A stretch of 64,000 nt of DNA from a virus (IMGVR_UViG_2563366840_000001); one strand, 5' to 3'. Positions 19,761 through 22,465 are shown, numbered from the stretch's first letter. Made by a program: numbers and translations. Notes: generated by a model not told the origin, from the letters alone.

Positions 19761-20118
19761 ATTATTCTGATTCTTGCTCAAAAAACGAGCTAATAAGGGG
19801 AAGCCAATCCTCTGACACTTCGCGAGGTCGCGGTTTGCCGTGGAAAAAGATTATTCGGCAGTCTTTTGGTAATGCCCCATTCCCCCTGGAGTAACGCGCG
19901 CTCGCATATTTCGAACCAGGTTCCACAACATCGGCCTTGTAACTTACAAACCATCCCGGATACAGATCCTGAAATGCTGGTGTATCATCACCCATAACCT
20001 TCCGCAAAAACCCCTGATCACCCCAGCATTCAGTAGTAACACAACGAGCAACCCAACCTTCCGGATCTTGCCAGAATGAACCGCCCCGGGTTTCCTGGAG
20101 AGTGTTTTATCTGTGAAC

Positions 20119-21009
20119 TCAGGCTGCCAGATCATCGTTTCCGATGGAAGCATAATAAGCTTTTTCTGCTTCTGCCGGAGGAGTATGGCCCAGCCTTTCC
20201 AGCAATCGTCGATTGTTATACCAGTCCACCCACGTGAGTGTGGCCAGTTCCACTTCTGCACGGTTTTTCCAGCTCTTACGGTGTATTACCTCCGCTTTGT
20301 AAAGACCATTGATGCTCTCCGCCATCGCGTTGTCATACGAGTCGCCTGTACTTCCTGTTGATGCCAGTAATCCGGCTTCCTTAAGCCGCTGTGTGTAGGC
20401 CAGCGATACATACTGAGAACCTTTATCACTGTGATGGACCGTGCCGGACGGTCGACGGGCCCATAACGCCTGCTCCAGTGCATCCAGCACGAATGTCGTT
20501 TCCATGGACGATGAGACCCGCCACCCCACGATGTATCCGGCAAACACATCAATGATGAACGCCACATAGACGAAGCCCCGCCATGTGCTGACGTAAGTAA
20601 AATCAGCCACCCACAGCTGGTCAGGTCGTTCTGCCACGAACTGACGGTTTACGCGGTCGCCTGCGGCAACGGCTTTCCGGCTGATGGTCGTACGGACCTT
20701 TTTACCCCGGAGAACACCGGCAAGTCCCATAACCGCCATGAGACGTGCCACAGTGCATCTGGCCACTCTGATACCTTCCCGTAACAACTGACGCCAGACT
20801 TTACGCACACCGTATACCTTGTGATTTTCATCGTATACGCGCTGTATCTCTTTCTTCAGCCAGTCATCGCGCTGCGCACGGGCACTGCGTTTATCCGGAT
20901 GATGTCGCTGTTGCTGACAGTGGTAATACGTTGACGGGGCAATATGCAGTTCGCTGCATAGCGGTCCGACCCCGTACTGCTCACGCAGCTTATCCAGCAG
21001 TGGCATCAT
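20119..21009 (-). CDS. IS629-like transposase OrfB, DDE catalytic domain (296 aa)
   Basis: rve-type DDE integrase core; overlaps OrfA. Confidence 0.85.
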
Positions 21010-21332
21010 TTTTTCCAGAGGCGGTCGAACTCCGCCTTCGCAAAATAAGCGGAAGCCTGGCGAAGGATATCGTTACTGCGGCGCAGTTCACGATTTTCAC
21101 GTTCCAGCTCTTTCAGACGCTGACGTTCAGCGGTGGTGAGCCCTCCATCACCGCCCCCGGTATCCCGCTCATGCTGGCGAACCCAGACACGCAGAGTCTC
21201 CGGCGTACAGCCAATCTTTGGAGCAATGGAACAAATTGTCGCCCATTGTGAGTCATATTCGCTCTGACTTTCCAGAACCATACGGACTGCCCGTTGACGG
21301 ACTTCGGGGGAAAAACGAGTATTTTTAGTCAT
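21006..21332 (-). CDS. IS629-like transposase OrfA (108 aa)
   Basis: HTH plus leucine-zipper-like region; overlaps OrfB as expected for IS3-family frameshifting. Confidence 0.85.
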
Positions 21333-21772
21333 CCTGTTTACCTCTTTCTCAGGAAGTTTAGTCTCCAGGATTCCCGGGGCGGTTCAGAATGCACTCCAGA
21401 TATGCGCTTTTACACTATTTGGTATCCACAGGGCACCGCTACCACGATATTGTGGATGGTAAAAATCCCTAAGCATGGTGAAGCTGGTTGGTGGATTCTC
21501 AAGGATTGGGCGTATATCACCGGCAATAACCGTGTCCAAATCCAGATAGAACAGATCATCGGTTATATCCGGTCGGAACAACTCGATTTTCGCCCACCAG
21601 CCACGGCACTTTTGCCACTGGTTGATCAATGGGATAACTTTGACGCCAGGTACATGTAAACGCTTCAGGTCTGTCAGGCAAATAATTTCATAGCCTTTTG
21701 GCAGTTGATTAACCAGCCACTGCACATCGGAAGCGTTATAGTCACCACCAGAGCGAAGAACTAAAGCAATCT

Positions 21773-22465
21773 TCATGCTGCACCATCACCTTTCACTTTC
21801 ATCAATGTCAGGTTTCCGCAAAATACGGCACCAGTATCGATATAATGCTGATTCCAGAATGTCTTCGGGCTTTTCACCAGAGTGTGACCAAAGATAAAAC
21901 GATCTGCGCCCGAAATTTCGCCACCAATATCATCCATCGAATCACTGATACGCTCGCGCGCCCAGACAACGTTGAAAAGCGGCACCTCCTTACCGAATTG
22001 ATATTCATTATCCGGATAGTCGGCATGGGCTATAACGATAGTTTCTTGCCCGGTGTTCAACTCAATGATATAGGGCAGTCGTCTTACCAACTCCACCAGC
22101 GCCCTGGCTAATATTTCCTGATCAGCGTCCAGCATGAAGAACCATTGACCGCCATTCATTAGCCAGTTATTCACGTTGCCATCAGGACTTAACGCATCAA
22201 TCATCAGCCGCTCATGGTTGCCCATAACCGCTCTGAACCATGGCATCTGCAATAGCTCCAGGCATTTAACATTTTCGGTGCCGCGATCGATAAGGTCGCC
22301 GACCGATATCAGTAAATCCTGCGCAGGGTCAAAATCCACACGATGGAGTTCGGACATCAGTCTGGTGTAGCAACCATGCAGATCACCAACAACCCAGATA
22401 TTCCTGTATTTGGTACCGTCGATACGGTGATAAATTGTGGGTGCCATCATGTATTCTTCAGCCAT
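21773..22465 (-). CDS. ppp: Ser/Thr protein phosphatase, lambda-PPase-like metallophosphatase (230 aa), P1 ppp-like
   Basis: GDLHG...GDLIDRG...GNHE metallophosphatase motifs. Confidence 0.7.

Follow-up and report, generated by a model that had tools for sequence, protein, structure and literature searches.

An insertion sequence interrupts a P1-like gene beside a phosphatase gene in the viral sequence IMGVR_UViG_2563366840_000001, and the locus raises the question of how the element arrived, whether the gene is lost, and whether the genes beyond it are affected. We analysed the whole stretch of 64,000 nucleotides, here called the window. It is very probable that an IS629-group element transposed into pmgQ of a P1-like prophage, with loss of PmgQ and little or no polarity, in an event that was probably recent and lineage-specific.

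Positions 1-32241 of the window were collinear with phage P1 in reverse orientation, with 93-99% identity outside the variable blocks. The genes followed the P1-like order ref-cre-lox, coi-c1, pacB-pacA-lpa, doc-phd, pap-pmgS-pmgR-pmgQ-ppp, gp26 through gp5 and dbn-ban. Judged by sequence on the portion inside the window, 1-32241 has the gene order of a Punavirus (P1-like phage-plasmid), the plasmid replicon (repA, parAB) and the full set of virion genes falling beyond the window. The block at 3985-5709, between c1 and pacB, is absent from P1 at that position. It contained sequence resembling ant/icd (81% and 71% identical to P1 immI), together with a C4 antisense RNA (5403-5490, 77 bits) and an RNA like isrK (5535-5613, 63 bits), and looks like an immI-type antirepressor module beside immC. 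The variable pmgT region at 14251-17368 (approximately 3.1 kb, from the pmgU/V-like region to pap) gave no megablast match to P1, and related plasmids annotate ead/Ea22-like, DUF551 and ASCH proteins around the pmgT backbone part.

The insertion sequence occupied positions 20077-21386 (1310 bp), its transposase being read from the minus strand, as is pmgQ. Its terminal inverted repeats, each of 25 nt, were IRL on the orfA side (21362-21386) and IRR at the other end (20077-20101, 92% complementary to IRL); they matched at 23 of 25 positions, so that the element opens with TGAACCGCCCCGGG and closes with the near-identical reverse complement. When 19700-21800 was scanned with a repeat finder, these arms were the single pair of inverted repeats returned. 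The ends were the canonical TG...CA, and the length lies within the IS3-family range of about 1.2-1.55 kb. Two minus-strand reading frames were found: orfA (21006-21332, 108 aa) matched HTH_Tnp_1 (PF01527, E 7e-13), and orfB (20119-21009, 296 aa) contained HTH_21 and rve, the DDE core (PF00665, E 8e-28), and matched NCBIfam NF033516 (transpos_IS3) with 314 bits (cut-off 160). The two frames overlap at AAAAAATGATG, with orfB in the -1 frame relative to orfA, and an ALIL frameshift-stimulating pseudoknot was located at 20935-21051 on the minus strand (Rfam RF01497, scoring 120 bits where the gathering score is 50). The predicted features correspond to the two-ORF layout of the IS3 family, namely orfA, a -1-frame orfB, an A-rich slippery site and a downstream frameshift structure, and near-identical copies carry the RefSeq label 'programmed frameshift'. 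With its ends, orfA, orfB and frameshift pseudoknot all intact, the element looks functional.

All 1310 bp were 100% identical to many E. coli copies on chromosomes and plasmids labelled 'IS3 family transposase'. Copies with at least 99% identity were present in 1299 records, and some match was found in 4264 of 5426 genomes. The identity was 97.0% to a copy annotated as IS629, 96.3% to the IS1203 copy of plasmid pO111_2, and 99.5% to a copy labelled IS629/IS3411 family by PGAP. IS1203 and IS3411 are regarded as isoforms of IS629 (PMC3271280). By these identities the element belongs to the IS629 group, the name resting on annotated near-identical copies rather than on an ISfinder reference, and the copy in the window is an isoform within that group (96-97% to the annotated IS1203 and IS629 copies). 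The label 'IS629-like', given together with the length of 1310 bp when the sequence was first read, is thus justified by both the IS3-family domains and the related copies. A literature search with the inverted-repeat sequence gave no match.

The element was flanked by GAA on both sides, the upstream copy in gene sense at 21387-21389 and the downstream copy at 20074-20076. Since a 3-bp repeat alone is weak evidence (a chance of 1 in 64), the site was compared with uninterrupted references. The empty site of P1 and pEcoUTI1e reads, in gene sense, AGTTCA-TTC-TGGCAAG with one TTC, while the window reads TTC, then the element, then TTC. The direct repeat visible by eye is 5 bp (GAATG), and the next target bases, TG, coincide with the first two bases of the element; because the canonical TG...CA termini fix the boundaries, the duplication is 3 bp and not 5. 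The target duplication is therefore real, exactly 3 bp long and more than a visual repeat. Duplications of 3-4 bp have been described for IS629 (PMC3271280). These data support arrival by simple transposition of a single copy into pmgQ at codon 130/131. The sequence-only reading had proposed a simple transposition, from terminal inverted repeats and a GAA on both sides, and both the repeats and the duplication were confirmed, at the positions it gave, by comparison with uninterrupted sequences.

The interrupted gene was reconstructed in silico. Its 5' fragment (21387-21776, minus strand) comprises codons 1-130 and includes an invariant DxD motif (D79-L-D81), and its 3' fragment (19762-20076, minus strand) runs from the duplicated codon 130 through codons 131-233 to the stop, and includes a near-invariant H208-G-x-P motif. 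Excision of the element and one GAA, joining 21776-21390 to 20076-19762, gave 702 nt with 233 codons and a stop and no frameshift. The restored frame was P1 pmgQ (P1_gp091) at 97.4% nucleotide identity over 702 nt; identity to P7 hdmD was 97.0%, and the excised sequence matched 19 phage records, P1 and P7 included. The continuous frame of about 233 codons expected from the first reading was thus recovered, and so was the overlap of its start with the stop of the phosphatase gene. That gene, ppp (21773-22465, minus strand), encodes a lambda-type Ser/Thr phosphatase (Metallophos, E 1e-15); the pmgQ ATG (21776-21774) and the ppp stop TGA (21775-21773) overlap as ATGA, and P1 has the identical 4-nt overlap. 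From this arrangement we infer translational coupling of ppp and pmgQ.

Insertion after codon 130 places the element between the DxD and the C-terminal His motif. The terminal TGA of IRL (21386-21384, minus strand) lies in the pmgQ frame and closes an ORF of 130 aa (21384-21776). Translation would stop at once on reaching the element, and a 130-residue N-terminal fragment is all that can be made. This fragment would keep the DxD and be without the His208 motif; the gene is therefore very likely inactivated, as the earlier reading had thought probable, by the separation of its conserved motifs and the immediate stop. Expression of the 3' half as a fusion out of the element was considered and rejected: in that frame the first start codon past the upstream stop is a TTG (20007), which would give 81 aa only. 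Annotated on their own, the two pieces of pmgQ would pass for separate hypothetical proteins, and the annotation is corrected here.

The product that would be lost was examined by profile and structure comparison. At E <= 0.01-0.1 neither Pfam, PF01501 (Glyco_transf_8) included, nor NCBIfam assigned PmgQ to a family, and a match to PHROG 1962 calls it a glycosyltransferase. We collected 137 homologues and aligned 105 sequences for a profile, which matched glycogenin and Skp1 alpha-galactosyltransferase in the PDB at E 1e-7. D79 and D81 were invariant in the alignment and H208 was conserved in at least 90% of sequences, with H208-G-x-P nearly invariant. A single-sequence structure prediction (pLDDT 42.7) was set aside for an alignment-based AlphaFold model (pLDDT 95.2, pTM 0.92). 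The best Foldseek matches to this model in the PDB were all GT8 enzymes of the GT-A fold, with probability 1.0 and TM-scores of 0.5-0.6. PmgQ is best called a GT8-like putative glycosyltransferase (GT-A fold, DxD) rather than a filed member of the GT8 family. The operon upstream of the element (21773-23730) encodes PmgO and PmgP, which are paralogous MptE-like or sialyltransferase-like proteins (weak PF01973 hits; PHROG 4603 and 2111), besides the lambda-type phosphatase Ppp and GT8-like PmgQ. As a set, the four look like a module for glycan modification under C1 repression.

The distribution of intact and interrupted pmgQ was then considered. The excised pmgQ sequence matched 681 plasmid records, with identity up to 99.3%, and was uninterrupted in 588 of them; among E. 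coli records carrying the gene, 595 of 675 had it uninterrupted. Approximately 88% of some 680 carriers are thus uninterrupted, and most of the others appear to hold divergent or mosaic alleles, not insertions. The junction in the window was absent from PLSDB and from complete E. coli genomes, and an exact search with 30 nt of it in a genome set of 185,579 species gave no match. The closest flanking sequences, 98-99% identical, were on plasmids without the element. Three records were considered as carriers of the same insertion and rejected: in pO111_2 the element is at a different site in pmgQ, in OZ023075 it sits in ppp, and in p812A1-65K it lies downstream of pmgQ. The element shows 100% identity to other copies and has intact ORFs, neither half of pmgQ has decayed, and the junction is absent from the collections searched; the insertion is therefore probably recent and lineage-specific, in support of the recent date suggested at first.

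Two other accounts of the insertion were weighed against these data. The element might have arrived by recombination, through homologous exchange between copies or resolution of a cointegrate, or its position might be an assembly artefact. IS629 is highly repeated in E. coli, in up to 53 places per genome, and such repeats are often misplaced in assemblies. However, P1 and about 590 plasmids have the two flanks joined without a break, and the duplication is of exactly 3 bp, which is the mark of direct transposition; the window contains a single copy of the element, and a misassembly would not yield a matching duplication. Recombination or artefact is scarcely credible on this evidence. The other account accepts transposition and holds that loss of pmgQ is selected for, with pmgQ a recurrent rather than a random target of IS629. 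It draws on pO111_2 (NC_013370, from E. coli O111:H- 11128), in which an IS1203 lies in pmgQ at record coordinates 2001-3310, equivalent to about 21573-21575 of the window. This too is a P1-like plasmid, from a Shiga-toxin-producing E. coli, with an IS629-group element in pmgQ in the same orientation, but the insertion in pO111_2 follows nt 204 and that in the window nt 390, a distance of 186 bp upstream, the duplications are GTC and GAA, respectively, and the elements are 96.3% identical. Because position, duplication and sequence of the element differ, the insertion in pO111_2 is an independent event. Two such events among about 680 pmgQ records do not establish a hot spot, though, and IS629 is without a sequence-specific target and favours prophages in general, 62% of the O157 copies being located there (PMC3271280). 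Selection for loss of pmgQ is very unlikely.

The operon structure and the map of operators and promoters were taken from the P1 GenBank record. In that record pmgQ is the last gene of the C1-controlled unit pmgN-pmgO-pmgP-ppp-pmgQ (Oppp/PpmgN), and directly 3' of its stop lie OpmgRa, the predicted promoter PpmgR and OpmgRb, annotated as controlling pmgR and pmgS. The corresponding region of the window, at 19695-19760 on the minus strand, belongs to a 96-nt interval between pmgQ and pmgR that was identical to P1 at 95 of 96 positions, and both genes were intact (pmgR, 19462-19680, minus strand, 72 aa; pmgS, 18198-19460, minus strand, 420 aa). Between the two C1 operators, at 19731-19706, a hairpin (CGTGATG-N6-CATCACG) is followed by T6. 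The interval folded at -26.9 kcal/mol with a z of -9.6, and the hairpin with its T6 looks like an intrinsic terminator overlapping PpmgR. The hairpin (19706-19731) overlaps the annotated -10 of PpmgR; transcripts from PpmgR would start inside it, and transcripts from upstream would hold the entire hairpin and might terminate there. The two C1 operators themselves form an extended inverted repeat (-26.9 kcal/mol). A consensus scan of 19400-22000 returned no promoter, PpmgR included, and terminators only at chance number, the hairpin not being flagged; this result speaks neither for nor against PpmgR, a promoter pointing out of the element, or termination at the hairpin.

The sequence-only reading had suggested that the insertion may be polar on downstream early genes, and in the strongest form of this idea transcription of pmgR and pmgS would need read-through from ppp-pmgQ or from LPpmgL, and the element would block virion morphogenesis. 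It has some grounds: P1 needs pmgR to complete its heads (PMC9024508), the gene lies only 81 nt downstream of pmgQ in the P1 record, the late promoter LPpmgL heads the gene cluster, and an element of 1.3 kb that is mostly poorly translated after the premature stop might invite Rho-dependent termination. Against it, the record places C1 operators and PpmgR between the two genes, in a region conserved to all but one nucleotide, and the stable hairpin with its T-run suggests that transcripts from upstream normally end there. Polar dCas12a roadblocks in ppp and pmgQ also left P1 plating unreduced (PMC10695390), although the assay is insensitive for pmgR, CRISPRi knockdown of which gave no phenotype in that study; the CRISPRi data for this reason cannot settle the share of read-through or of LPpmgL in pmgR expression. 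We consider strong polarity very unlikely. Since pmgR and pmgS have an operator-promoter region of their own, a polar effect on them is unlikely to matter, and the suggestion of polarity was not borne out, pmgQ being the last gene of its unit. Transcription might also enter the element rather than stop short of it: no convincing terminator was predicted between the promoter of the pmgN-pmgQ operon and orfA, and derepression of the prophage could then drive read-through into orfA and orfB, coupling bursts of IS629 transposition to P1 induction. If this were true, the phage-plasmid would be a launch pad for the element, but we regard it as improbable.

For PmgQ itself, published data are direct. 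An in-frame deletion of pmgQ was among 29 single-gene knockouts of P1 made by Gonzales et al., and the gene was non-essential (PMC9024508); Piya et al. also class it among the non-essential genes, the efficiency of plating under CRISPRi being 1.4 (PMC10695390). Deletion and CRISPRi thus show that pmgQ is dispensable for plaque formation and lytic growth of P1, and its knockout should not alone impair lytic growth. The sequence-only reading had tied the insertion to whether the phage-plasmid is still inducible; this link is not supported, as the loss of a gene already deleted in frame from P1 is not expected to be decisive.

A second insertion was present in the window. P1 homology broke off at 32241/32242, which is 36 bp upstream of the start codon of ban. 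The remainder, 32242-64000, was a Mu-like transposable prophage collinear with NZ_CP132021 at 93-98% identity, and its far end falls outside the window. Among its genes are those for Mor, GemA, a MuB-like ATPase, a DDE transposase, a portal protein and the tail, and the prophage probably cuts ban-dbn off from transcription that starts upstream. The headful of P1 is about 110-115 kb. The Mu-like prophage adds about 37 kb and is likely to take the DNA beyond that headful, the full size of the replicon reaching past what the window shows. This extra DNA would probably compromise phage propagation far more than the insertion in pmgQ.

In the sequence of events that we propose, an IS629-group copy would have transposed into pmgQ at codon 130/131 and duplicated the 3-bp GAA. 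The terminal TGA of the sense-oriented element would halt translation of PmgQ and leave the 130-residue N-terminal fragment, and pmgR and pmgS would still be served by a C1-controlled promoter of their own, which is intact. Only the activity of PmgQ would then be expected to be lost, and polar effects would be slight or nil. Events of this sort are commonplace and well understood; an IS3-family element in a non-essential phage gene is a textbook case, of little general significance. Its value is more local: the junction, absent from every collection searched, can be used as a lineage marker, and the window holds a natural pmgQ knockout that, together with pO111_2, shows the GT8-like PmgQ to be dispensable for plasmid maintenance.

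The locus can be placed beside known systems at three levels. PmgQ shares a predicted GT-A fold, the DxD and a C-terminal His motif with the retaining enzymes of GT8 (glycogenin, LgtC and Skp1 alpha-galactosyltransferase), but differs from them in its low identity (12-17%), its TM-scores of only 0.5-0.6 and its lack of a Pfam PF01501 match. The element agrees in structure with IS629, IS1203 and IS3411: it is 1310 bp long, ends in TG...CA with inverted repeats of 25 nt, carries orfA and orfB in frames 0 and -1 together with the ALIL pseudoknot, encodes a DDE (rve) domain and has duplicated 3 bp of its target. The comparison gave no structural difference, and the insertion site alone is new. The interrupted gene corresponds to P1 pmgQ in its 233 aa, its ATGA overlap with ppp, and the operators, pmgR and pmgS that follow it, whereas the copy in the window is interrupted after codon 130.
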